A DNA stretch of 64,000 nt from an uncultured Acidimicrobiia bacterium (GCA_963836205.1 CAWIIV010000006.1:160001-224000); one strand, 5' to 3'. Shown: positions 11,878-24,289, counted from the first letter of the stretch. Program-made: numbers and translations. Notes: generated from the letters alone by a model not told the origin.

Positions 11878-12663
11878 TCAGCTTGCCGCGCCCACGGCGC
11901 CCCCCGCCAGCAGGTCGTCGATGCTCCAGCACAGCTCCCGGAACGTCTGGTCCCGCAGCAGCGCCCGCTCCCGGCCCGGCCCGAAGGGGATGGCCAGCTC
12001 GGCCGCCACCTGCCCCGGCCGTGACGACAGCACGTAGACCCGGCTCGACAGGTAGACCGCCTCCTCCACGTCGTGGGTGACCATGAGGATGGTGGCGCCG
12101 GTGTCGGCCTGCACCTGGACCACGAAGTCCCGCATCGACGCCCGCGTCTGCGAGTCCAACGCCCCGAACGGCTCGTCGAAGAGCAGCACCGACGGCTCGG
12201 TGGCCAGGGCCCGGGCGATGGCCACCCGCTGCTGCATCCCGCCCGAGAGCTGCCGGGGCAGGGCGCCGGCAAAGTCCGACAGCCCCATCACCCGCAGGTA
12301 CTCGGTCACCCGGGAGGCGATGTCCGCCCGATCCATGCCCTTGAGCTCCAACCCGAAGCCGACGTTCTCCGCCACCGTCCGCCACGGATACAACGAGTAG
12401 CTCTGGAAGACGAGTCCCCGGTCGGGACCGGGACCGGAGACGTGGCGCCCGTCGACCAGCACCGCCCCCTCGGTGGCCTCGACCAGGCCCGCCGCGATCG
12501 ACAGCAGGGTCGACTTGCCACAGCCCGACGCTCCCACCAGCGTCACCAGCTCGCCCTCCGCCACGTGGAGGTCGACGTCGACCAGGGCCCGCACGATCCT
12601 GCCCTTGGCGTCGACGTAGTCCTTCGTCACCGCGATCATCTGCAACTTCGGAACCGCGGTCAT
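11878..12663 (-). CDS. NitT/TauT-family ABC ATP-binding protein (probable guanidine import)
   Basis: GASGCGKS, LSGGMQQR, DEPFGALD and VTHD motifs. Confidence 0.92.
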   Translation of the reverse strand: MTAVPKLQMIAVTKDYVDAKGRIVRALVDVDLHVAEGELVTLVGASGCGKSTLLSIAAGLVEATEGAVLVDGRHVSGPGPDRGLVFQSYSLYPWRTVAENVGFGLELKGMDRADIASRVTEYLRVMGLSDFAGALPRQLSGGMQQRVAIARALATEPSVLLFDEPFGALDSQTRASMRDFVVQVQADTGATILMVTHDVEEAVYLSSRVYVLSSRPGQVAAELAIPFGPGRERALLRDQTFRELCWSIDDLLAGGAVGAAS

Positions 12664-13568
12664 CGGGCCCACGGCGCCAGCCGGTTGCGAAGGAGGCGGA
12701 ACCCGAGGTCGGTGGCCACGCCGATGAGGCCGATCACGATGAGCACGGCGAAGATGACGTCGGTGTCGAGGAACCTCCCGGCCCGCACGATGCGGTACCC
12801 GAAACCCTCCTGGGCGGCGATGAGCTCGGCCACCACCACCATGTTCCAGGTGGCGGCGATGTTCACCCGCATGGCGTCGATCAGGCCGGGGACGCAGTAG
12901 GGCACGATCACCTTGCGGATGACCTGCCACCGGCCCGCGCCCAGCGTGTACGAGACGTTGATCAGCTCGGCCGGCACCTGGGCGGCCACGTCGGCGCTCA
13001 TGAGGGTGTTGAAGAACACGGTGCCGATCACCAGCAGGGCGATCTTCGACGACTCCCCCAGCCCCAGCCAGATGACGAGCAGGGGGATGAACGCGGGCGC
13101 GGGCATGTAGCGGAGGAAGCCGATCATGGGCTCGAACAGGCCCCGGACCACGGGCCAGGTGCCCATGGCCAGGCCCAACGGCACGGAGATGGCGACCACC
13201 AGGACGAAGCCGATCACGATCCGGGTCAGGGTGGCCCGGGCGTCGGACCACAGCTCGCCGCTCGACGCCAGCCGACCGAAGGCGCGCAGCACCTTCGCCG
13301 GCGACGGCAGGAACGTCGAGTCGACGACGCCGGTGCTGCTCACTGCCGTCCACACGAGGAGCGGAACCAGCACCGAGATGACGGCCAACGGCAGGCGCAG
13401 CCGTTCGGGGACCTGCTCCCGCAGGCGCAGCATCCGGATCCGGGGCCGGCCCGGAGCCAGCACCCGACGCAGCCTCGGGCCCGGTGGCGAGCCGGGGCCG
13501 ACCGGCCCCCCGTCCACCCCCTGCTCGCCGGGCGCGGCCGCGGGCTCGGTCACCCCGATCTCGGTCAC
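12660..13568 (-). CDS. NitT/TauT-family ABC permease
   Basis: FLPSP, RYMPAPAFIPL, TLGA and VVVAELIAA motifs. Confidence 0.92.
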   Translation of the reverse strand: MTEIGVTEPAAAPGEQGVDGGPVGPGSPPGPRLRRVLAPGRPRIRMLRLREQVPERLRLPLAVISVLVPLLVWTAVSSTGVVDSTFLPSPAKVLRAFGRLASSGELWSDARATLTRIVIGFVLVVAISVPLGLAMGTWPVVRGLFEPMIGFLRYMPAPAFIPLLVIWLGLGESSKIALLVIGTVFFNTLMSADVAAQVPAELINVSYTLGAGRWQVIRKVIVPYCVPGLIDAMRVNIAATWNMVVVAELIAAQEGFGYRIVRAGRFLDTDVIFAVLIVIGLIGVATDLGFRLLRNRLAPWAR

Positions 13569-13572
13569 CGGG

Positions 13573-14580
13573 TCAACCGGCGGCCGCCCGGGCGGTCACG
13601 AACGTGGGATCGAGCAGTCCGGCCAGGTCGGGCGCGGTGTCGACCAGCTTGGAGTCGACCAGGAAGGTGGCGATCTGGCGGGCGGCGAAGTCGAGGTGCT
13701 TCTGGTCGTTCCCCGGCGCCAAGGCCTCGACGTTGTCGGCCAGGGTGAAGATGGTGGTGCCGGCGTCGTACTCGCGGTAGGCGGCCACGTCGACCCCCGC
13801 CCGCTTGGCCATGATGGCCACCGCCTCGTCGGCGTTGGCGCCGATGTAGTCGATCGTGTCGAACCAGGCGTCGACCAGCTTCTGGACGTCGCCCGGTCTC
13901 GCCTGCACGAACGCGGCATCCATCACCAGGTGGTCGGGAATGGCGCCCGGGAAGTCGGCCGAGCTGAACAACACCTTCGACCCCTGCCGCTCCCGAGCGA
14001 CGTCGGTGAAGGGGGCGAAGGCGCCCACCGCGTCGAGCCGGCCGGAGGCGAAGGCGGCCGCGGCGGCGTCGGTGAGGAGGGGCTGGAGGTCGACGTCGGC
14101 CGGCGTCATCCCCGCCCGCTGGAGCCCGAGCAGGAGGAGGTAGTGGTCGACGGTGCCCTCCTCGACCCCCACCTTCTTGCCCCGGAGGTCCGCCACCGAC
14201 GCGATCTCGGCCGCGGCGATGATCTGGTCGTTGCCGGTGGAGTTGTCGTTGACCAGCACGATCGACTGCTTCGACCCGCCCGACACCGACGAGATGGTGT
14301 CGTTGAGGGTCTGGCTGTTCCCGTCGATGTTCCCGGTGGCCAGGGCGTTGAGGGAGTCGGTGTAGCTCTCGAAGTAGGTGAGATCGACGTCGAGCCCGTG
14401 CCTGGCGAAGATCCCCTTCTCCTCCGCCACCTGCCACGGGAACCACCCCGGCCAGGCGCTGAAGCCGAGGGAGACCTTGCTCAGCCCGGGTGTCGACGAC
14501 GAGTCGTCGTCGCTGCCACCGCAGGCGGCCAGCCCCACCAGGCCGATCACGACCACCGCCGCTGCCAGACGTCTACGCAT
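13573..14580 (-). CDS. SsuA/NMT1-like substrate-binding lipoprotein (probable guanidine binding)
   Basis: Lipobox LAAC; SAWPGWFPW and NDNSTGNDQI motifs; lies downstream of the guanidine riboswitch. Confidence 0.88.
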   Translation of the reverse strand: MRRRLAAAVVVIGLVGLAACGGSDDDSSSTPGLSKVSLGFSAWPGWFPWQVAEEKGIFARHGLDVDLTYFESYTDSLNALATGNIDGNSQTLNDTISSVSGGSKQSIVLVNDNSTGNDQIIAAAEIASVADLRGKKVGVEEGTVDHYLLLLGLQRAGMTPADVDLQPLLTDAAAAAFASGRLDAVGAFAPFTDVARERQGSKVLFSSADFPGAIPDHLVMDAAFVQARPGDVQKLVDAWFDTIDYIGANADEAVAIMAKRAGVDVAAYREYDAGTTIFTLADNVEALAPGNDQKHLDFAARQIATFLVDSKLVDTAPDLAGLLDPTFVTARAAAG

Positions 14581-15700
14581 CGCTCGACTCCTTCTTGGGT
14601 CGCGGCAGGTGGCCGTGGTTGACGAGGGTCCCCAGGACGTCGCAGATCACCCGGGTCCCGAGGAGCGACGTGATCTCGGCGCTGTCGTACGGCGGCGAGC
14701 ACTCCACGATCTCGATCCCGGCCAGGCCCCGGGCCGCGACCCCCTTGACCAGCTTCAATGCCTCCCGGGGCAGGAAGCCGCCCGGCTCCGGCCAGCCCGT
14801 CCCGGGGACGAAGGCGGCGTCGAGGCAGTCGACGTCGAACGACAGCCACACCGCCTCGGCCCCGTCCCACGCCACCTCGAGGGCGTGCTCGATGGCGGCG
14901 TCGAGGCCCATGTCGACGCAGTCGTTGACGGTCATGATCGTCGTCTCCCGCTCCCGGCAGACCTTGACCCCGGGTCGGGGCGCCTGCCACCCGCCGATGC
15001 CTATCTGGACCAGGTTCTTGGCCGGGACGTTGGGGATGTCGGTGGCGTGGAACCAGGGGGTGGTGTGCATCCGTTCGTCGAGGTCGGTCTCCTGGGTGTC
15101 GACGTGGCGGTCGAAGTGGATGATCCCCAGGTTGCCGCCGCCCAGGTGAGGAGCCACCGCCCGCACCGTGGGGTAGCCGATGGAGTGGTCGCCGCCGAGC
15201 ACCACCGGGAAGGCCCCGCTGGCGTAGACGTGGGACACCGCCTTGGTGATCTGGTCGAACGACTTCTCGATGTTGCCGGGGATGGTGAAGATGTCGCCCA
15301 GGTCGCACATGGTGATCGACTCCCGCAGGTCGACCCCCAGCTCGAAGGAGTACGGGCCGTAGAGGGTGGAGATCGCCCGCATCCCGCGGGGGCCGAAGCG
15401 GGTGCCGGGCCGGTAGGTGGTGCCCGAGTCGTGGGGGGCGCCCACGACGGCCACGTCGTACCGGCCGCACGTGCGCACGTCCTCGACGTAGGGCGCCTTG
15501 AGGAACGTGGTGATGCCGGCGTAGTGGGGCAGCTCGCCCCGGCTGAAGGTGGGGATGGTCTTGTCGACGATGGAGTCGGCGCCCGGCAGGCCCATCTCCA
15601 GGCCCCGGGCGATCTCCCGGCGCCACCCGTCGAGGGGGATGAGGACCTCCGCCTCCAGCGCCCGCCTCGCTTCGGGCCCGTGCCGGTCGTGAACTGCCAC
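14573..15700 (-). CDS. gdmH: Guanidine hydrolase (ureohydrolase/agmatinase family, GdmH-like)
   Basis: TFSRGELPHYAG, GGDHS, FDRHVD, ERMHTTPW, DVDCLD and GTGWPEPGG motifs; first gene after a guanidine-I riboswitch; GAGGAG RBS before GTG. Confidence 0.85.
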   Translation of the reverse strand: MAVHDRHGPEARRALEAEVLIPLDGWRREIARGLEMGLPGADSIVDKTIPTFSRGELPHYAGITTFLKAPYVEDVRTCGRYDVAVVGAPHDSGTTYRPGTRFGPRGMRAISTLYGPYSFELGVDLRESITMCDLGDIFTIPGNIEKSFDQITKAVSHVYASGAFPVVLGGDHSIGYPTVRAVAPHLGGGNLGIIHFDRHVDTQETDLDERMHTTPWFHATDIPNVPAKNLVQIGIGGWQAPRPGVKVCRERETTIMTVNDCVDMGLDAAIEHALEVAWDGAEAVWLSFDVDCLDAAFVPGTGWPEPGGFLPREALKLVKGVAARGLAGIEIVECSPPYDSAEITSLLGTRVICDVLGTLVNHGHLPRPKKESSDA

Positions 15701-15741
15701 CTGTCGGCTGCTCCTCTCTGGTGACCGACCCGGCGAACGAG

Positions 15742-15778
15742 AAAGCCCGGGACGATCGATGTCGATCTCCCGGGCTTT
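15742..15778 (-). terminator. Riboswitch expression-platform hairpin
   Basis: AAAGCCCGGGA of the aptamer 3' stem pairs with downstream TCCCGGGCTTT; only a weak U-tract follows. Confidence 0.7.
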
Positions 15779-15860
15779 TGTCCCTCCGTGTGACGAGTCG
15801 CAGCTCGCCTGCACCTCTCGGACCAGACCCCCCACGAGTGGGGGCGGAACCCTAGGTGCC
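15767..15860 (-). ncRNA. Guanidine-I (ykkC-yxkD) riboswitch
   Basis: Minus strand reads GCACCTAGGGTTCCG...GTCTGGTCCGAGAGGTGC...ACACGGAGGGACAAAAGCCCGGGAG, matching the ykkC consensus blocks. Confidence 0.93.
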
Positions 15861-15898
15861 GTGTGTTTTCAGTTGTGATGGGACGGTACGCACCCTTC

Positions 15899-15936
15899 GT
15901 TTCTGCCGTGTTTCCGACGAACGACGAACTGGTGAC
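15899..15936 (-). promoter_or_regulatory. Putative GlnR box
   Basis: GTCAC-n6-GTCGT-n6-GAAAC-n6-GAAAC, compared with the consensus gTnAc-n6-GaAAc repeats, upstream of a nitrogen-scavenging operon. Confidence 0.45.
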
Positions 15937-16001
15937 ACGGTCGCCGGACAACGTCACCGCGGCGGAGCATCCGCGGTTGGCGGCGGGCGGCTACGTAGCG
16001 T

Positions 16002-16799
16002 TTGCGACGCGTGCGGCCCGTCCTCTTTCACGCCGGCTCCTACGGGGTGCCGACCCACGCCTTCTTCGTCGCCCTCGGGCTGCTGGCCGCGGGCATGGTG
16101 TTCGTGGTGGAGGCCCGGCGGCGGGGTCGGCTGGACGAGGCCATGGGGTGGATCGTGGCCGGCACCCTCCTCGGCGGCGCGATCGGCGCCCGCCTGAGCA
16201 CGCTGTGGGGCTACGTCGACGACGCCGCCGACCCGAGCCTCGTCGGCGCGGCCCTCGACGGCGGCAAGAGCATCCTGGGCGGGCTGTCCGGCGCCTATGT
16301 CGGAGCCCTCGTCACCAAGCGCATCCTGGGCTACCGCCGGTCCACCGGCGACCTGTTCGTGCCCGCGGTGGCCCTGGGCATGGCCGTGGGCCGGGTGGGC
16401 TGCTTCCTCACCGAGCAGGTCGGCACGCCCACGTCGATGCCGTGGGGCATCCACCTGAGCCCGGAGGCGGCGGCCCGCATCCCCCACTGCCCGTGGTGCG
16501 CGTCGGGCGTCGCCATGCACCCGTCGATGCTCTACGAGATCGCCTTCCACGCGGTCGCCTTCGTGGTGGTCCTCCGCCTCCGGGGCCGCCTGCGGACGGA
16601 AGGCGACGTGTTCAAGCTCTACCTGCTCGGCTACGCCCTCTTCCGCTTCTGGGTCGAGTTCGTGCGGGGCGGCGACCAGGTGCTGGCCGGTCTCACCCGG
16701 CCCCAGCTCTTCCTCGTCCCGTCAGGCCTGGTGCTGGCCGCCTACTTCGCCCGCCGGGTGACGCGGCCGGCCCCGGTGTCCGTGGCGGCGGACCGATGA
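16002..16799 (+). CDS. Prolipoprotein diacylglyceryl transferase (Lgt) family paralogue
   Basis: GARL, GKSILGGL, GRVGCFL..GTPT.MPWG, HPSMLYE and RFWVEFVR motifs. Confidence 0.88.
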   Translation: MRRVRPVLFHAGSYGVPTHAFFVALGLLAAGMVFVVEARRRGRLDEAMGWIVAGTLLGGAIGARLSTLWGYVDDAADPSLVGAALDGGKSILGGLSGAYVGALVTKRILGYRRSTGDLFVPAVALGMAVGRVGCFLTEQVGTPTSMPWGIHLSPEAAARIPHCPWCASGVAMHPSMLYEIAFHAVAFVVVLRLRGRLRTEGDVFKLYLLGYALFRFWVEFVRGGDQVLAGLTRPQLFLVPSGLVLAAYFARRVTRPAPVSVAADR

Positions 16800-16854
16800 G
16801 CCCCGATTGATGAGCCCCGATTGATGAGCCCCGATTGATGAGCCCCGATTGATG
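16795..16854 (+). repeat. Perfect tandem repeat, 14-bp unit GATGAGCCCCGATT x4.3
   Basis: Units start at 16795, 16809, 16823 and 16837, with a partial unit at 16851. Confidence 0.97.
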
Positions 16855-17079
16855 GACACCGTCCTGGCCGTCCTCCTTCTCGTCGGCCTGGCCCTCCTCC
16901 TGGCGTCGGCGGGCGGCGTGGCGCTGGCCAGCATCGTGAGGGCCCGTCACCGGAACCTGCCTCCCGACGAGGTGCAGCGCAAGGCGGCGGCCGCCTTCTG
17001 GATCGGGTCGATCGTGGGACTTGCCCTGGAGCTGGTCCTGTTCGGGATGTGTGTCTCGATGTTGAACCAGATGGGTTAG
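16852..17079 (+). CDS. Small two-TM membrane protein ending ELVLFGMC-x8
   Basis: 75 aa, two hydrophobic helices, similar to the next ORF. Confidence 0.7.
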   Translation: MDTVLAVLLLVGLALLLASAGGVALASIVRARHRNLPPDEVQRKAAAAFWIGSIVGLALELVLFGMCVSMLNQMG

Positions 17080-17082
17080 CGG

Positions 17083-17286
17083 ATGGACATCGTCAACGCC
17101 ATCCTCGGGCTGACCCTGCTCTTCGCGGCGCCGGCCACGATCATCGGCGGCATCGCCGCCATCATCGCCCTCGCGTCCGGCCACCGGGCCGTGCGGGCCT
17201 TCTGGATTGCCTTCGTCATCGTCGTCGCCATCGAGCTCATCCTCTTCGGGATCTGTCTCGCCGCCTTCCGGGACTTCGGCGGCTGA
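17083..17286 (+). CDS. Small two-TM membrane protein ending ELILFGIC-x9
   Basis: 67 aa; shares AFWI..IV...EL.LFG.C with the previous ORF; TGATG coupling to the radical SAM gene. Confidence 0.72.
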   Translation: MDIVNAILGLTLLFAAPATIIGGIAAIIALASGHRAVRAFWIAFVIVVAIELILFGICLAAFRDFGG

Positions 17287-18884
17287 TGCGGGGCATGCCC
17301 CTGCGGGGTGACCGCATCCTGCGCTACGTCACCGCCTTCTGCCCCACCTGCCACGCGGAACGACCCGACCGACCCCTCGCCGAGGTGGCCCGCCTCGGCG
17401 GCTACCTCTCGGAGGCCGACGGGCGGGTGTGGCTGGTCCGGGGCTGCCCGACCCACGGGCGCATCGTCACCCTCTACGACGAGTCGCCCGAGATCCTGGC
17501 CTACCTCGAGCAGTGGACGGCGCCCACCAAGGCCCACCGCCCCGACACCCCGGGCAACTTCGACCCCATCCCGTCCGCCTACCTCCGGGGTCTCGGCGAG
17601 CTCCAGACCCAGCACACGTGCACCCTGCTGGAGGACATCGCCGAGAAGTGCAACCTGCGCTGCCCCACCTGCTTCACCGACTCCGGGCCCGAGCGGGCCG
17701 GTCTCGTACCCATCCACGACGTGGTGGCGAACGTCGACCAGCGCCTGGCCCGGGAGAACGGCGCCCTCGACGTGGTCATGGTGAGCGGCGGCGAGCCCAC
17801 AGTCCACCCGGACCTGGTCGAGATCCTCGACCGCATCCTCGAGCGGGACGTCACCCGGATCCTGGTCAACACCAACGGCATGCGCCTGGCCCACGACGAC
17901 GCGCTGCTGGCCGCCCTGGCCGAGCGCCGCGACCGGGTCGAGGTCTACCTCCAGTTCGACGGGTTCCGGGCCGCCACCCACCGCCATCACCGGGGAGCCG
18001 ACGTGGGAGCCGTCAAGCGGAAGGTGGTCGAGCGGCTGCGCGACGCCGAGATCTTCATGACCCTCACCATGACCGCCGCCCTGGGCGTCAACGACGACGA
18101 GATCGGCGACGTGGTCAACTTCGGCCTCGACACCCCCTACGTGGGCGGGGTCAGCATCCAGCCCCAGTTCGGGTCGGGCCGGTCGGGCGCCATCGACCCC
18201 CTCGACCGCCTCACCCACACCGGCGTGCTGGCGCGCCTCGGCCCTCAGACCGGCGGCCGCTTCGGCTGGCGGGACATGACCGCCCTGCCCTGCTCCCACC
18301 CCCATTGCTGCAGCATCGGCTACGCCATCCGCACCGACGCCGGCGAGTGGAAGTCGCTGGTGGGCATGATCGGCCACGAGGAGCTCAAGGCGAACCTCGA
18401 CCTGGTCAGCAACCGGATCGCCGACCGGGAGCTGCCCGCCCGCCTGCGCCGACTGCTGAAGGACTCGCTCCTGGGCCTACTCAGCGACCAGGCGTCGCTC
18501 ACCCATCCGAGCGTGCCCCAGCTGCTCCGCAACGTGTGCGACCACTGCGACCTGGGCGTGCGCACGCTCGCCCGCATCACCACCCGCCCCGGGGCCGAAG
18601 GCCGCCGCCGCATCCGGGACCTGCTGGCCCACCGGGTGAAGCGCATCGTGGTGAAGCCGTTCATGGACCTCGACACCATGATCGAGGAGCGGCTCCAGCA
18701 GTGCTGCGTGCACGTCGGGTCCCGGGGCGCCGACCACAACGGCGACGGTGGCGGCCACCAGTGCGCCCCCTTCTGCGCCATGCAGGCGTGGCCCGCCCTG
18801 GGCGCCACCCGCCTATCGGCGACGGCGACCGCCGAGTCCGCTGCCGCCGAGGACCAGCCGGTCACGCTCGGCCGCCGTGGCTGA
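17286..18884 (+). CDS. Radical SAM protein, Tes/GDGT-MAS (MJ0619)-like family
   Basis: N-terminal CPTC...CPTHG, CNLRCPTC, SGGEPTVHP, NTNG, YLQFDG and C-terminal CCVH...PFC. Confidence 0.85.
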   Translation: MRGMPLRGDRILRYVTAFCPTCHAERPDRPLAEVARLGGYLSEADGRVWLVRGCPTHGRIVTLYDESPEILAYLEQWTAPTKAHRPDTPGNFDPIPSAYLRGLGELQTQHTCTLLEDIAEKCNLRCPTCFTDSGPERAGLVPIHDVVANVDQRLARENGALDVVMVSGGEPTVHPDLVEILDRILERDVTRILVNTNGMRLAHDDALLAALAERRDRVEVYLQFDGFRAATHRHHRGADVGAVKRKVVERLRDAEIFMTLTMTAALGVNDDEIGDVVNFGLDTPYVGGVSIQPQFGSGRSGAIDPLDRLTHTGVLARLGPQTGGRFGWRDMTALPCSHPHCCSIGYAIRTDAGEWKSLVGMIGHEELKANLDLVSNRIADRELPARLRRLLKDSLLGLLSDQASLTHPSVPQLLRNVCDHCDLGVRTLARITTRPGAEGRRRIRDLLAHRVKRIVVKPFMDLDTMIEERLQQCCVHVGSRGADHNGDGGGHQCAPFCAMQAWPALGATRLSATATAESAAAEDQPVTLGRRG

Positions 18885-19164
18885 CCCCCGCATCCCGGCC
18901 GCCCTCCGGGGAGCGTCGGAGCCTTCGGAGTCGCCGTCCGACCCGCTCCACTGGTGCGTGTTCACCACCGTCAGCCTGCTGACGTGGGCCCTGGGCCCGG
19001 CCGTGCTCGTCGTCTTCTCGACGGCCGGTCTGGTGGCCTACTCACGATCCTTCGCCCGTGGCCGGCGCCGCAGCCGCTGCCTGCTGCGCGACACCCGCCT
19101 GGTGGTGGCCTACCTGGCCGTCACCCTCGCCTTGGGCGTCGTCGCCACCGTCCGCGGCCTGTAA
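18877..19164 (+). CDS. Small membrane protein
   Basis: Overlaps the radical SAM stop; DPLHWCVFTT and SRCLLRDTRLV motifs; hydrophobic. Confidence 0.7.
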   Translation: MADPRIPAALRGASEPSESPSDPLHWCVFTTVSLLTWALGPAVLVVFSTAGLVAYSRSFARGRRRSRCLLRDTRLVVAYLAVTLALGVVATVRGL

Positions 19165-19362
19165 CCCGTCCCCCGGGACGGCCCCGAAGCCGTCAGCTAC
19201 GGGCCACGGAGATGCAAGAGAAGCGACAGGTAATGGTCATGGGGCCTACATGCTCGCTTCACGGACGGGCAATGGCGCCTCCCTATGGTTCGGCGGAAAT
19301 TGATCCGTCGAGCACTGAGGGGGCTCATGGGAATGCGCAGACGATCGGCGCGAAGCCGATCG

Positions 19363-20619
19363 ATGTCGAGAAGTCTGGTCGCGGTCGCAGCGGCGGCGGG
19401 GTTGGTCCTGGCCGCCTGCGGCAGCGACGACGACACTGCAGGCACTGCGACGGGGCCGGAGACGGTCAAGGTCGGGATCCTGCACTCGCTGAGCGGGACG
19501 ATGTCGATCAGTGAGGTCGCCGTCCGGGACGCGTCGCTGCTGGCGATCAAGGAGATCAACGCCGCCGGGGGCGTGATGGGCAAGGAGATCGATCCGGTCG
19601 TGCGGGACGGGAAGTCGGACTGGCCCACGTTCGCCCAGGAGTTGGAGTCGCTCATCACCACCGAGAAGGTGGCGGTGACGTTCGGCGGGTGGACGTCGGC
19701 CAGCCGCAAGGCCATGAAGCCGGTGGTCGAGGGCCTCGACGGGCTGCTGTTCTACCCGGTCCAGTACGAGGGCCTGGAGGTGTCGCCCAACATCTTCTAC
19801 ACCGGCGCCACCACCAACCAGCAGATCATCCCCGCCCTCGACTACCTGAAGGAGAAGGGCCTCACCCGGCTGTTCCTGGTCGGCTCGAACTACGTCTTCC
19901 CCCAAACGGCCAACAAGGAGATCAAGGCCTACGCCGCCGCCAACGGCATGGAGATCCTCGGCGAGGAGTACCTGGAGCTGGGTGAGAAGAACGCCCAGAC
20001 CGTGGTTCAGAAGGTGCTCGACGCCAACCCCCAGGTCGTGTTCAACACCCTCAACGGGGACACCAACGTGAGCTTCTTCCAGGAGCTGAAGGCCAAGGGC
20101 AACACCCCCGACAAGATCCAGACCATCTCGGTGTCGATCGCGGAGGAGGAGACCAGGGGCGTCGGCATCCCCAACCTGGTCGGCCACCTGGTGGCCTGGA
20201 ACTACTACCAGACCACCGACCTGCCCCGGAACACGGCGTTCGTGGCGGCCTACAAGGCCGAATACGGGCCCAACCGCAACACCGACGACCCCATTGAGGC
20301 CGGCTACAACTCGGTCTACATCTGGAAGGCAGCGGTGGAGAAGGCCCAGTCCTTCGACGTCGAGGCCGTTACTGCCGCCGCCGGGGGCCTGGTGCTGGAC
20401 ACGCCCGAGGGCCTCCTCACCGTCCACCCGACCAACCACCACGTGGCCAAGACGGCACGGATCGGCGTGATCAACGACCAGGGGCTCATCGACGAGGTGT
20501 GGACCTCGGGCAAGCCCATCGAGCCCGATCCCTGCCTCGACACCTACCCCTGGGCGGCGGCCGCGGGACTGGCCACCCCCGAGGCACGCGCCGAGTGCGA
20601 CGCGGCCAAGGCCAGCTAG
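19363..20619 (+). CDS. urtA: Urea ABC transporter substrate-binding lipoprotein
   Basis: Lipobox LAAC; GILHSLSGTM, FGGWTSASRK, YPVQYEGLE, NQQ and FNTLNGD motifs. Confidence 0.96.
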   Translation: MSRSLVAVAAAAGLVLAACGSDDDTAGTATGPETVKVGILHSLSGTMSISEVAVRDASLLAIKEINAAGGVMGKEIDPVVRDGKSDWPTFAQELESLITTEKVAVTFGGWTSASRKAMKPVVEGLDGLLFYPVQYEGLEVSPNIFYTGATTNQQIIPALDYLKEKGLTRLFLVGSNYVFPQTANKEIKAYAAANGMEILGEEYLELGEKNAQTVVQKVLDANPQVVFNTLNGDTNVSFFQELKAKGNTPDKIQTISVSIAEEETRGVGIPNLVGHLVAWNYYQTTDLPRNTAFVAAYKAEYGPNRNTDDPIEAGYNSVYIWKAAVEKAQSFDVEAVTAAAGGLVLDTPEGLLTVHPTNHHVAKTARIGVINDQGLIDEVWTSGKPIEPDPCLDTYPWAAAAGLATPEARAECDAAKAS

Positions 20620-20638
20620 CGCTAGCGGAGTGAGGAAC

Positions 20639-20670
20639 GTCCGCCGCCCGGCCCCGCCCGGGCGGCGGAC
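20639..20670 (+). terminator. GC-rich hairpin between urtA and urtB (attenuator or mRNA stabiliser)
   Basis: GTCCGCCGCCCGG...CCGGGCGGCGGAC inverted repeat. Confidence 0.6.
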
Positions 20671-20706
20671 CTTCATGCTGGCCTCACCTCGCGAGGAGCA
20701 CACGAC

Positions 20707-21600
20707 GTGGACACCTTCCTGAGCAACCTCTACATCGGCATCACGCTCGCCTCGCTCTTCCTCCTGGTGGGGCTGGGCCTCACCTTCACCTTCGGCCAGA
20801 TGGGCGTCATCAACATGGCCCACGGCGAGTTCATCATGGCCGGGGCCTACGTTCCCTACGTCCTGCAGACCACGTTCTTCGAGGGCACCAAGGGCGCCGC
20901 AGTCCTCGTCGCCCTCCCCGTCGCCTTCCTCGTCGCCGGCCTCATGGGCGTCGTGCTCGAACGCCTGCTCCTCCGGCGGATGTCGGGCCGGCCCCTCGAC
21001 ACCCTGCTCGTCACCTTCGGCGTCAGCCTGATCCTCCAGCAGCTGGCCAAGGACCTCTTCTCGGCCAACAACAAGGAGGTGGTGACGCCCACCTTCCTCC
21101 GCGGTCAGTCCGACCTCCTGGGCGTCACGGTCACCCACACCCGCCTGTTCGTCCTGGCCGTGGTCCTGCTGTCGATGGCCGGCGTGGCCTTCTTCCTCGG
21201 CAAGCTCGCCGCCGGGCGCCGGATGCGGGCCGTGATGCAGAACCGCGACCTGGCCGCGGTCAGCGGCCTACCCGTCTCCCGGGTCGACGCCACGACCTTC
21301 TTCATCGGCTCGGGGCTGGCCGGCGTGGCCGGCGTGGCCGTGTCGCTGATCGGCTCCGTCGGCACCGCCACCGGCACCTCGTACATCCTCTTCGCCTTCC
21401 TGGTCGTGATCGTGGGCGGGGTGGGCAGCCTCAAGGGGGCGGTCATCGCCGCCGTCGCCCTCGGCATCCTGAACTCCTACGTCGAGTTCTGGACCTCGTC
21501 CAGCCTGGCCAAGGCGGCCGTGTTCGCCTTCGTCATCCTCTTCCTGCAGTGGCGCCCCAACGGGATCGTCTCCTTCCGCACCCGGGGCCTCACCGCGTGA
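20707..21600 (+). CDS. urtB: Urea ABC permease
   Basis: TFGQMGVINMAHGEF and RPLDTLLVTFG motifs. Confidence 0.94.
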   Translation: MDTFLSNLYIGITLASLFLLVGLGLTFTFGQMGVINMAHGEFIMAGAYVPYVLQTTFFEGTKGAAVLVALPVAFLVAGLMGVVLERLLLRRMSGRPLDTLLVTFGVSLILQQLAKDLFSANNKEVVTPTFLRGQSDLLGVTVTHTRLFVLAVVLLSMAGVAFFLGKLAAGRRMRAVMQNRDLAAVSGLPVSRVDATTFFIGSGLAGVAGVAVSLIGSVGTATGTSYILFAFLVVIVGGVGSLKGAVIAAVALGILNSYVEFWTSSSLAKAAVFAFVILFLQWRPNGIVSFRTRGLTA

Positions 21601-22799
21601 GCGACACGACCATCGTCGGTCCGCCGCCAGACCCTGCTCCGACGGCGCCCACGGTGACCGGCGCCGAGCCGCGCCGCACCCCGCGCTCCCGCCTCGCCGC
21701 CGGCTCCAGCAGCCCGTGGACCGGCCGGGGCGCCTTCGTCGTCTTCGCCGTCGTCCTCCTGGCGGTGCCCACCGTGGCCAGCAACCCGGCCGACATCCGG
21801 CTGTGGGCCGAGTGGCTCTGCTACGCCATGATCGCCATCGGCCTCGACATCGCGTGGGGCTACGGGGGGATGCTCGCCCTCGGCCAGGGGCTGTTCTTCG
21901 GCCTGGGCGCCTACGCCATGGGCATGCACCTGTCGCTCGAGCAGGTTCCCGACGGCTCCCTGCCCTCGTTCATGGCCCTGTACAGCGACTACACCAGCCT
22001 GCCGGCGTTGTGGCGCCCGTTCCAGAGCCTGTGGTTCGCGGCCGCGGCGGCGGTGCTGGTGCCGGTGCTGGTGGCGGGGCTGCTCGGGCTGCTGGTGTTC
22101 AAGCGCCGCATCCGGGGCCCGTTCTTCGCCATCCTCACCCAGGCCACGGCGGTGATCTTCGTCCTGGTCCTCATCGGCAACCTCAAGCTCACGTCCGGCA
22201 CCAACGGGCTCACCGGGTTCACCACCATCTTCGGCCGCAGCCGCTACGCGCCCGGCACCAACAAATGGCTGTTCACGGTGGCTGCCATCGGCCTGCTGGT
22301 GGTGCTGGCCATCGCCATGAAGGTGGTCCGCAGCCGCTACGGCAAGCTCCTCCAGGCGACGCGCGACAGCGAGGACCGGGTCCGCTTCCTCGGCTACGAC
22401 CCCGCCATCGTCAAGACGGTCGGTTTCATGATCGCGGCCGGCATGGCCGGGCTCGCGGGTGCCATCGCCGCCCCCGTCTTCGGCATCGTCTCCCCCGCCC
22501 AGTTCGACTACGTGCCCTCGATCCTCATGGTCTGCTGGGTGGCGGTCGGCGGCCGGGGGACGCTGTGGGGGGCGGTGCTGGGGGCGCTGGTCGTGAACTG
22601 GGCCCGGGTCGAGGTGAGCGCGGCCCGTCCCGACGACTGGCTGTACCTCCAGGGCCTGCTGTTCGTGGTCGTGCTGGCCTTCGCCCCCGGGGGTATCGCC
22701 GGGCTCCTGCGGGGCCGGTGGCAGTGGCTTTCGGCGTCGCTCGCCCGTCGCAACCGACCCTCGCCCATCGAGAACGCCCCAGTAGGAGGGACCGTATGA
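21597..22799 (+). CDS. urtC: Urea ABC permease
   Basis: WGYGGMLALGQG.FFGLG, FAILTQA and WVAVGGRGTL motifs. Confidence 0.94.
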   Translation: MSDTTIVGPPPDPAPTAPTVTGAEPRRTPRSRLAAGSSSPWTGRGAFVVFAVVLLAVPTVASNPADIRLWAEWLCYAMIAIGLDIAWGYGGMLALGQGLFFGLGAYAMGMHLSLEQVPDGSLPSFMALYSDYTSLPALWRPFQSLWFAAAAAVLVPVLVAGLLGLLVFKRRIRGPFFAILTQATAVIFVLVLIGNLKLTSGTNGLTGFTTIFGRSRYAPGTNKWLFTVAAIGLLVVLAIAMKVVRSRYGKLLQATRDSEDRVRFLGYDPAIVKTVGFMIAAGMAGLAGAIAAPVFGIVSPAQFDYVPSILMVCWVAVGGRGTLWGAVLGALVVNWARVEVSAARPDDWLYLQGLLFVVVLAFAPGGIAGLLRGRWQWLSASLARRNRPSPIENAPVGGTV

Positions 22800-23591
22800 C
22801 CAAGGTGCTCGAAGTCAGTGGCCTGGCGGTGGAGTTCGACGGGTTCAAGGCCCTCGACGGGGTCAACTTCTCCGTCGAGCAAGGTGAGCTGCGCTTCCTG
22901 ATCGGTCCCAACGGCGCGGGCAAGACGACCCTCATCGACTGCATCACCGGGCTCACCAGGCCCACCGCGGGCGACGTCCGCTTCGAGGGCCGGTCGCTCA
23001 ACGGGTTGGCCGAGCACCGGCGGGTGAAGCTCGGGATCGGCCGCAGCTTTCAGACGCCCACCGTGTTCGACACCCTCACCGTGGCCGACAACCTCGACCT
23101 GGCCGAGGTCTTCCGCAGCCGCCTGCCCCGGTTGTTCCTCCGCCGCAAGGGCGTGAGCCCGGGCGTGTCGGCCACGCTCGAACGGGTCGGGCTCACCGCC
23201 GTGGCCGAGCGGCCCGCGGGCGCCCTCAGCCACGGCCAGAAGCAGTGGCTGGAGATCGGGATGCTGCTGGTGCAGGAGCCCAAGCTCCTCCTGCTCGACG
23301 AGCCGGTGGCGGGCATGAGCCCCCAGGAGCGGACTCGACACCGGCAAGCTGCTCCACGAGCTGGCCGGCGAGCACACCGTGGTCGTCATCGAGCACGACA
23401 TGGCCTTCCTGCGCCGCTTCGCCCACACCGTCACCGTCCTCCACGAAGGCAAGGTCATCTCCGAGGGCTCGGTCGACAAGGTGCAGGCCGACCCCATCGT
23501 GCGCGAGGTCTACCTCGGCCGGTCCCGCGACGAGCGCTCGGGTCAGGTCAGGGAGCCGGCCATTGCCGGGGGACGCCGAGGGCGGGGCTGA
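22796..23591 (+). CDS. urtD: Urea ABC ATP-binding protein, frameshift near 23335
   Basis: GPNGAGKT, LSHGQKQWLEIGM and DEPVAGM, then TGKLLHEL..VVVIEHDM in another frame. Confidence 0.9.
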
Positions 23592-24289
23592 TGCACCTCG
23601 AAGTCGACGACGTCCGCATCGCCTACGGGCGCACGGAGGTTGTCTACGGGGCATCGCTCGACGTCCCCGACGGGAGCTGCACGTGCCTCATGGGCCGCAA
23701 CGGGGTGGGCAAGACCACCCTGCTCAACGGGATCATGGGCATGCTCCCGCTCAAGGCGGGCACCATCACGCTCGACGGCCGCGACATCACCGGGATGGCC
23801 ACCCCCGCCCGGGCCCGGGCCGGCATCGGCTACGTCCCCCAGGGCCACCAGGTGTTCCCCCACCTCACCGCGAGGGAGAACCTGCGGGTGGTGCTCGAGC
23901 GCGACCGCAATGGCGACCCGAAGGCGATCGACGACGCCCTCGACGTGTTCCCCCGCCTGCGGGCCCTGCTCGACCGGCCCGCGGGCCTGCTGTCGGGCGG
24001 CCAGGCGCAACAGCTGGCCATCGCCCGGGCGCTGGTGTCCCGGCCCCGGCTGCTCGTGCTCGACGAACCCACCGAGGGCATCCAGCCGTCGATCATCCTC
24101 GAGATCGAGGACGCCATCGCCGAGCTGCACAAGGCGGGTGGCATGACGATCCTGCTGGTGGAGCAGTACGTGGAGTTCGCCCTCCGCCTGGCCGAGCACT
24201 ACGCGGTCATGGAGGGCGGCCTCATCACCCACCGGGGCGAGACGTCCTCCGTCGAGCTCTCCGCCTTCTCCGACCTGCTGGCGGTCTGA
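23591..24289 (+). CDS. urtE: Urea ABC ATP-binding protein
   Basis: GRNGVGKT, LSGGQAQQLAIAR and DEPTEGIQPSI motifs. Confidence 0.94.
   Translation: MHLEVDDVRIAYGRTEVVYGASLDVPDGSCTCLMGRNGVGKTTLLNGIMGMLPLKAGTITLDGRDITGMATPARARAGIGYVPQGHQVFPHLTARENLRVVLERDRNGDPKAIDDALDVFPRLRALLDRPAGLLSGGQAQQLAIARALVSRPRLLVLDEPTEGIQPSIILEIEDAIAELHKAGGMTILLVEQYVEFALRLAEHYAVMEGGLITHRGETSSVELSAFSDLLAV

Follow-up and report, generated by a model that had tools for sequence, protein, structure and literature searches.

Five genes on the plus strand of a 64,000-nucleotide stretch of DNA from an uncultured Acidimicrobiia bacterium (GCA_963836205.1 CAWIIV010000006.1:160001-224000; the whole stretch is called the window below) form a unit at 16002-19164. 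It encodes, in order, a paralogue of the lipoprotein-lipidating enzyme Lgt, two membrane miniproteins each carrying one invariant Cys (sm1 and sm2), a radical S-adenosylmethionine (SAM) enzyme resembling the archaeal tetraether synthase Tes (GDGT-MAS), and a third small membrane protein (sm3). The module is real, widespread and undescribed, and it is built from known families. Its make-up points to a lipid or lipid-protein modification that is not yet described. The function that we favour, at a probability of roughly 40% and as judged from sequences and predicted structures, is that the Lgt paralogue would S-lipidate the Cys of the co-encoded membrane proteins and that the radical SAM enzyme would functionalise a lipid tail by radical chemistry. 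The tightly coupled five-gene unit described in the initial annotation of this DNA is borne out, as all five open reading frames (ORFs) are present and abut or overlap.

The Lgt paralogue, which has His at the position of Y26 and Cys at that of N146 and for which we use the family name Lgt-HC, proved inseparable from the radical SAM gene, in keeping with the pairing of the two that had been predicted. With one genome taken per species, 275 stretches encoded a relative of the radical SAM enzyme; the best 80 loci were used (81 with the window added), spanning Actinomycetota, Gemmatimonadota, Acidobacteriota, Dormibacterota and other groups. By tblastn, Lgt-HC adjoins the radical SAM gene in 75 of the 80, upstream on the same strand in 73, on the opposite strand in L059 and downstream in L068. 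The five loci with no Lgt-HC match all have 370 nucleotides or less of upstream flank. Among 400 sampled Actinomycetota genomes, an orthologue of the radical SAM enzyme (61-70% identity) was found in six, and Lgt-HC (47-58% identity, the next Lgt match being at 35%) in exactly those six, adjacent in 6/6. A further 15 of the 400 genomes hold only a distant radical SAM paralogue, at 33-39% identity; one of the 15, G120, is an unpublished genome on which nothing else here rests. The hosts of the radical SAM family include many species of Mycolicibacterium, as well as Nocardia, Nonomuraea, Blastocatellia, Thermoanaerobaculia and other Acidobacteriota. Besides the module itself, all-against-all clustering of the flank genes revealed no gene family common to the flanks across phyla.

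The two proteins also occur as a single chain. P0121, a metagenome protein of 775 residues in a cluster of eight member sequences, is a natural fusion of Lgt-HC and the radical SAM enzyme in which the radical SAM domain comes after the last Lgt helix. This domain order fits a cytoplasmic C-terminus of Lgt, as reported from topology work on the E. coli protein. P0121 has no Cys at the positions of C418, C421 and C493, all conserved in the family, and may from its sequence be a variant with one cluster fewer. Another apparent fusion, P0123 (615 residues), reads as a frameshifted gene call and was set aside.

Lgt-HC passes the Pfam LGT model (PF01790; 123.7 bits, cut-off 24.9) and falls under the cut-off of the NCBIfam equivalog TIGR00544 (87.8 bits, cut-off 118.9), with the other Lgt equivalogs far under theirs. 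It shares with E. coli Lgt (5AZB, 5AZC) the Pfam family, the body of seven transmembrane (TM) helices and six motif residues: alignment to 5azb shows R143, G154, Y235, R239, E243 and R246 (E. coli numbering) to be retained, and E151 as well if a shift of one residue is allowed. The full Lgt motif comprises 13 residues (Y26-H103-G104-G142-R143-G145-N146-E151-G154-Y235-R239-E243-R246; 10.1101/2025.03.27.645668), ten of which are present. The differences from E. coli Lgt are the three motif replacements and the presumed acceptor, a G-x-C motif near the C-terminus as opposed to an N-terminal lipobox. In alignments of 67 and 25 paralogues Y26H and N146C are invariant and H103L is nearly so. According to the available part of the study that defined the motif, E. 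coli Lgt cannot do without Y26, H103 or N146; Y26 and N146 are given a role there in the entry of phosphatidylglycerol, R143 and R239 one in phosphate binding (10.1101/2025.03.27.645668). With three essential residues replaced, the transfer of diacylglycerol by Lgt-HC put forward in the initial annotation is not supported, and no more than allowed, by the sequence. A complex prediction for Lgt-HC and sm2 from family alignments, run without controls, scored 0.00 and 0.09 (mark 0.32), which is no evidence in either direction.

Replacement of essential residues is also what an inactive relic of a duplicated lgt, adjoining the radical SAM gene by chance, might display. The replacements are, however, themselves invariant (H19 and C134 of Lgt-HC are present in 25/25 paralogues), 32 positions are invariant across phyla in the 25-sequence alignment, and the strict co-occurrence and the natural fusion speak against chance. 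The conservation data already contradict a decaying duplicate, which we regard as extremely improbable. The source genome (88.6% complete) has two further LGT matches, of 221 and 153 bits, on other contigs; Lgt-HC is therefore an extra copy and not the only lgt, as expected for the dedicated Lgt that was proposed. The third Lgt-family gene (153 bits; G000:C22:57083-57799, L002) has Asp in place of N146 and ends in a long, acidic C-terminal tail, and by its sequence appears to be neither a canonical Lgt nor Lgt-HC.

The Lgt-HC signature has a precedent in print. The second Lgt homologue of M. smegmatis, MSMEG_5408, carries the same Y26H and N146C; in the available part of the report it is treated as a weak or redundant Lgt with no radical SAM partner mentioned (10.1101/2025.03.27.645668). 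For MSMEG_5406, MSMEG_5407, MSMEG_5409 and MSMEG_5410 the literature yielded one zinc-regulon paper, in which MSMEG_5406 is a hypothetical protein that goes down 9-fold on zinc starvation, an observation that may or may not relate to the module.

The radical SAM enzyme is, as assessed from sequence and predicted structure, a member of the Tes superfamily and not a Tes equivalog. It matches the Pfam families Radical_SAM (PF04055, 76.6 bits) and the MJ0619-type zinc ribbon (PF23545, 38.2 bits). The best-scoring NCBIfam model is that of the radical SAM (seleno)protein TrsS (NF045646), at 195.2 bits over residues 38-358 and under the cut-off of 490; the Tes model (NF045702) gives 146.3 bits, under its cut-off of 450. 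A PDB sequence search found GDGT-MAS (7tol, 94.6 bits) over residues 35-339, with a weak second stretch that aligns the CC-x-H motif. An AlphaFold2 model (mean predicted local distance difference test score 62.5, predicted template modelling score 0.71) is confident in its core and of low confidence in the cluster-binding loops. With this model, Foldseek matched 7tol at E 7.4e-21 and 7tom at E 1.9e-20, with template modelling scores of 0.55-0.63 over 549-552 columns; the next match was SkfB at 1e-6. The predicted structure has the four domains of Tes (rubredoxin-like, N-terminal, radical SAM core and C-terminal), and the Tes/GDGT-MAS architecture named in the initial annotation is upheld by both the sequence and the fold match.

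The motifs listed there are likewise all present, with conservation of at least 95% among 77 members of the family: C19-x2-C22...C54-x2-H57, C122-x3-C126-x2-C129, C473-C474-x-H476 and P495-F-C497. The same level of conservation applies to C112, to C336, H338, H340 and C341, to C418 and C421, and to C493. The Tes of M. jannaschii (MJ0619; 7TOL, 7TOM; NF045702) has in common with the window enzyme the whole-chain fold, the N-terminal site of three Cys and one His (C19, C22, C54 and H57 here), the CX3CX2C motif and the C-terminal CC-x-H. It differs in sequence (19% identity), in the bacterial hosts of the window family and in the pairing of the latter with an Lgt paralogue and Cys-bearing miniproteins. 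Tes holds a 3Cys+1His iron site, the radical SAM cluster and two auxiliary clusters (PMC13459092, section 2.1). Beyond the N-terminal site and CX3CX2C, the window family has nine conserved Cys and several conserved His, a count that would fit two auxiliary clusters as in Tes, where the ligands are 3Cys+His for [4Fe-4S]N and 3Cys+Met for [4Fe-4S]C; of these residues, only those of the CC-x-H stretch align with 7tol by sequence. The enzyme has no TM-like segment (highest 19-residue hydropathy 0.84). Among 8000 scored candidates, 2064 proteins belong to the family at E <= 0.001, and the best 120 are 65-92% identical. The Tes crystal structure contains a lipid with a phosphoglycerol headgroup (PMC13459092), the archaeal counterpart of the Lgt donor.

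Several relatives of the enzyme have other partners. The bacterial membrane-spanning lipid synthase Mss of Thermotoga (Sahonero-Canavesi et al. 2022), likened here by description, is a radical SAM enzyme for which a Tes-like joining of fatty-acyl tails is proposed in the available part of PMC13459092; no Lgt partner or Cys miniprotein is mentioned for it there. TrsS is the nearest NCBIfam model, yet the relatives closer to TrsS pair with methyltransferases, not with Lgt; TrsS itself appears in the available part of PMC13188914 only in a table of selenoproteins, where no function is given. Four distant Tes/TrsS-like paralogues of other Actinomycetota (L084-L087 in genomes G369, G357, G252 and G086), 33-39% identical to the window enzyme, score 331-334 bits with TrsS and 293-328 bits with Tes, nearer to both than the window family. 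Two of the four adjoin DVU_1556-family (ArsM-like) methyltransferases and one adjoins an arsenosugar-type, TIGR04282-like glycosyltransferase, and this set is a different, likewise uncharacterised module. In addition, three genes upstream of the module are common to L026 and ten further loci of mycobacteria (1-4.7 kb); judged by eye from the translations, they resemble a P-type ATPase, a regulator of the ArsR/SmtB type and a ZIP-like transporter. The arrangement is probably synteny by descent.

These contexts bear on a reading in which the module performs metal, metalloid or cofactor chemistry, with the Cys of Lgt-HC (C134), of the miniproteins and of sm3 acting as ligands or relay thiols. Such chemistry would suit the arsenic-type partners of the sister subfamilies, the best match to an uncharacterised (seleno)protein and the metal-type genes of the mycobacteria. 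The ArsR- and metal-type neighbours are nevertheless lineage-specific, Lgt-HC retains the arginines that bind the phospholipid phosphate, and it is a lipid enzyme that the fold matches over the whole chain. We give this reading little credence.

The miniproteins sm1 and sm2 are paralogous (38% identity, with G22, E51, G56 and C58 invariant). Each carries a single invariant Cys in L-F-G-[MI]-C, close to the C-terminus: sm1 ends in G-M-C and eight further residues, and sm2 in G-I-C and nine. No Pfam or NCBIfam family covers sm1, sm2 or sm3, and no Pfam match above cut-off was obtained for ten counterpart miniproteins or the sm3 homologues. The conservation of the small ORFs along with the pair, on which the initial annotation leaned, does not hold for the sequences of sm1 and sm2, since tblastn found relatives in only 5/80 loci; it does hold for the class of protein, for which a motif-and-topology criterion was therefore used in place of homology. 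In other loci the gap between lgt and the radical SAM gene usually encodes a different membrane protein of 45-260 residues, whose N-terminal part is unrelated between lineages and whose last inside-to-outside helix finishes in G-x-C.

A C-terminal criterion, namely a hydrophobic 18-mer followed by G-x-C at most 25 residues from the C-terminus in ORFs of at least 40 residues with a GC content at third codon positions (GC3) above 0.6, was applied to both strands. It selected proteins in 56/81 loci, all on the strand of the unit and in or beside it. A uniform scan for a hydrophobic 20-mer finishing in G-x-C gave 66 matches over the 484 kb of the unit zone (59/81 loci), against one match over 421 kb on the same strand beyond the zone and one over 905 kb on the opposite strand. 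Taken together, the two place a G-x-C membrane protein inside the unit in 66/81 loci, seven of which are added by the C-terminal criterion; a stricter overlap filter leaves 45-53/81. With GC3-based gene calls, for which the caller missed many small genes, the motif is present in 24/84 genes in the zone versus 2/666 outside. Tandem copies number one to three per locus. In L008 and L059 the TM-Cys protein has no Gly at -2.

In 41/50 instances 4-16 residues separate the Cys from the C-terminus; Gly is at -2 and mostly Phe, Val, Leu or Ile at -1. The 13-residue stretch that precedes the helix holds on average 1.85 Lys plus Arg, versus 0.30 after the Cys; the 67 instances divide into 57 with a larger number before the helix, 8 with equal numbers and 2 with a smaller one. 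By the positive-inside rule the Cys is therefore predicted to be at the outer face, as is a lipobox Cys, and the predicted geometry is that of a lipoprotein: a hydrophobic helix runs N-in, C-out after basic residues and has the Cys at its outer end. The G-x-C proteins of Acidobacteriota and Blastocatellia encoded between lgt and the radical SAM gene (L011, L012, L015, L028, L036, L064, L067, L071, L073, L082 and L083) have an N-terminal helical domain of about 50 residues, with no match in Pfam and present twice in L067 and L073. Some of these proteins carry the Cys behind the first of two TM helices and not behind the last, and in some Acidobacteriota 55-123 residues, another TM segment among them, come after the Cys.

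A variable leader-like region with a short tail bearing a conserved Cys, and the tandem copies, are reminiscent of ribosomally synthesised and post-translationally modified peptides. The radical SAM enzyme would in that case act on a peptide, for example by cross-linking the Cys of sm3 or of the G-x-C proteins, as a thioether or otherwise; Lgt-HC would be a tailoring or anchoring enzyme, and the product would be a small lipopeptide. Weaker fold matches to peptide-modifying radical SAM enzymes such as SkfB and SuiB would agree with this. Nevertheless, no SPASM or twitch Pfam family was detected in the enzyme at E up to 0.1, and scores with the NCBIfam models of peptide maturases go no higher than 30-47 bits, over the radical SAM core. 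The Cys is predicted to be across the membrane from the cytoplasmic enzyme, and the long acidobacterial extensions are not short tails. In addition, clustering of the flank genes found no protease, exporter or other transporter, or immunity gene conserved in the unit; release of the lipopeptides of the initial annotation is likewise allowed and not supported. Peptide maturation of this kind seems to us quite unlikely.

The remaining small protein, sm3, is a conserved family (37-67% identity) with eleven invariant residues (D22, P23, C27, T31, W37, Y55, G62, C68, L70, Y79 and L80). By tblastn and hidden Markov model (HMM) searches it is encoded directly downstream of the radical SAM gene in 60/80 loci. 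It was not found in any of the 17 mycobacterial loci nor in L027, and L046 and L068 have no downstream flank. A search of the ESM Atlas with sm3 returned only actinobacterial clusters without a name.

In the function that we favour, a phospholipid would serve Lgt-HC as donor of a glyceryl-lipid, to be placed on the one invariant Cys of the co-encoded membrane proteins, here sm1 and sm2. The Tes-like enzyme would dock on the cytoplasmic face beside Lgt-HC and, using a 5'-deoxyadenosyl radical and auxiliary Fe-S clusters, would functionalise, in the manner of Tes, an unactivated carbon in the tail of a lipid. That lipid could be the donor or the one bound to the protein, so that lipidation and the tail step might come in either order, and sm3 may be a membrane adaptor, dispensable in mycobacteria. 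We favour this because integral membrane proteins make up three of the four parts; because Lgt-HC retains the phosphate-binding arginines, but has changed residues for donor guiding and acceptor handling; because the sole conserved feature of the variable partner is one Cys in lipobox geometry; and because the fold of the radical SAM enzyme is that of an enzyme that draws lipid tails into its active site.

Several points weigh against S-lipidation followed or preceded by a radical tail step. Y26, H103 and N146, each essential in E. coli Lgt, are all replaced in Lgt-HC, and MSMEG_5408, with the same signature, has a "presumed low Lgt activity" in the accessible text of 10.1101/2025.03.27.645668. 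The score with the Tes model is well short of its cut-off, and the subfamilies nearer to Tes and TrsS pair with methyltransferases, so that the fold is no guarantee of lipid chemistry. The lipobox has the consensus [LVI][ASTVI][GAS]C and follows an N-terminal signal peptide; sm1, sm2 and their counterparts do not have this arrangement, their -1 residue being bulky and their Cys near the C-terminus. Nine loci with adequate flank (L013, L027, L046, L047, L050, L052, L065, L066 and L069) have no G-x-C gene near the unit; seven of them are Gemmatimonadaceae or Gemmatimonadales, and four other loci are without flank. The radical SAM enzyme and the Cys are on opposite sides of the membrane, the one cytoplasmic and the other predicted at the outer face; the lipid tail is therefore a likelier radical target than the Cys. 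An identity of about 65% among radical SAM enzymes from different phyla is seen more typically where an enzyme has a small substrate that does not vary.

Some of the same points suit a pathway that makes bulk lipid only, such as phospholipids that are tail-to-tail coupled, membrane-spanning or macrocyclic. Lgt-HC would there be a lipid-binding or headgroup-transfer partner and the small proteins structural subunits, not substrates. Mycolicibacterium, Nocardia and Nonomuraea, which also have the family, are not known for membrane-spanning lipids, and this counts against such a pathway. The Tes fold with Tes-like metal sites, the high identity across phyla and the loci with no G-x-C gene would be well explained, as would the presence of the family in Blastocatellia, Thermoanaerobaculia and other Acidobacteriota, given that bacterial Tes homologues are proposed, in the available parts of PMC8941075 and PMC11868695, as synthases of brGDGTs, the branched glycerol dialkyl glycerol tetraethers. 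The single invariant Cys in otherwise hypervariable co-encoded proteins would, however, be left unexplained, no ether-lipid or other lipid gene is conserved nearby in the flank-gene clustering, and the enzyme reaches only 146 bits against the Tes cut-off of 450. On balance a lipid-only pathway is possible and somewhat unlikely.

A more specific form of S-lipidation with a radical tail step would yield a protein-anchored, membrane-spanning lipid: Lgt-HC would diacylglycerylate the outer-face Cys, and the radical SAM enzyme, from the cytoplasmic side, would weld a tail of the anchor to the tail of an inner-leaflet lipid or to the anchor's second tail. We consider this outcome unlikely. The cross-linking or cyclisation of acyl tails that the initial annotation ascribed to the enzyme is allowed and not supported by our analyses. 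If it were true, the resulting covalent transbilayer tether or macrocyclic anchor would be a post-translational modification not yet described.

The features of the unit are collected in Table 1.

Table 1. Features of the five-gene unit, with positions counted from the first nucleotide of the window.
Feature	Position	Strand	Evidence
Lgt-HC (Lgt-family paralogue, 265 residues)	16002-16799	+	Pfam PF01790, TIGR00544, alignment to 5azb
Perfect 14-nucleotide tandem repeat, 4.3 copies, filling the lgt-sm1 spacer	16795-16854	.	Tandem Repeats Finder (TRF)
sm1, two-TM miniprotein of 75 residues, candidate substrate	16852-17079	+	ORF; TM helix finishing in G-x-C
sm2, two-TM miniprotein of 67 residues, candidate substrate	17083-17286	+	ORF; TM helix finishing in G-x-C
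Tes/GDGT-MAS-superfamily radical SAM enzyme, 532 residues	17286-18884	+	PF23545, PF04055, Foldseek
sm3, membrane protein of 95 residues with two invariant Cys, conserved accessory component	18877-19164	+	tblastn, HMM, alignment

The lgt and sm1 genes are separated by a 52-nucleotide spacer and sm1 and sm2 by 3 nucleotides; sm2 overlaps the radical SAM gene by 1 nucleotide, which in turn overlaps sm3 by 8. The start of sm1 is the ATG at 16852, with a TTG present at 16849. That of sm3 was placed at the GTG at 18877 and not at 18748, because its relatives begin with M-T-D-P-R at the same position. The spacer repeat (TRF score 120, 100% matches) reads as four chained mini-ORFs of four codons (M-S-P-D-stop) with one-base overlaps, finishing at the sm1 ATG. 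Its 14-nucleotide unit is private to the source genome, being found in that genome's own copy and in 0/82 other loci, and could be a slippage product or a translational relay.

The unit is discrete, since it lies between a divergent operon upstream and an ATP-binding cassette (ABC) transporter operon downstream. Scans for promoters and terminators over 15500-19500 found none. The window is high in GC (about 70%), and the nearest relatives of its DNA are Acidimicrobiia metagenome genomes. A Guanidine-I riboswitch at 15765-15866 on the minus strand (89.9 bits, gathering score 63) stands before the divergent operon, which comprises, from the look of the translations, an arginase/agmatinase-like ORF (14573-15835) and ABC-transporter ORFs (11878-14580). 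The downstream operon (19285-24289) resembles, again from translations, a urea/branched-chain-type ABC transporter with a binding protein, two permeases and two ATPases. The riboswitch and this operon suggest a nitrogen-scavenging neighbourhood.

We found no publication that links the Y26H/N146C Lgt variant with a Tes-like radical SAM enzyme or that describes the G-x-C proteins, supplementary tables not being covered by the search. Bacterial Tes homologues have been reported and, in the available parts of these sources, are proposed without test as brGDGT synthases (PMC8941075; PMC11868695; PMC13459092). Such homologues are counted in metagenomes as brGDGT markers, and a caution for geochemistry follows from the present data: the contexts of the Lgt-HC-linked and the methyltransferase-linked radical SAM subfamilies do not fit that reading. 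The module unites, in a conserved bacterial unit with candidate substrates of its own, two well-studied enzyme families, one known from the lipidation of lipoproteins and the other from the making of archaeal tetraethers. It also offers a candidate function for an enzyme that has been a puzzle, the second Lgt of fast-growing mycobacteria, with its identical Y26H/N146C signature.

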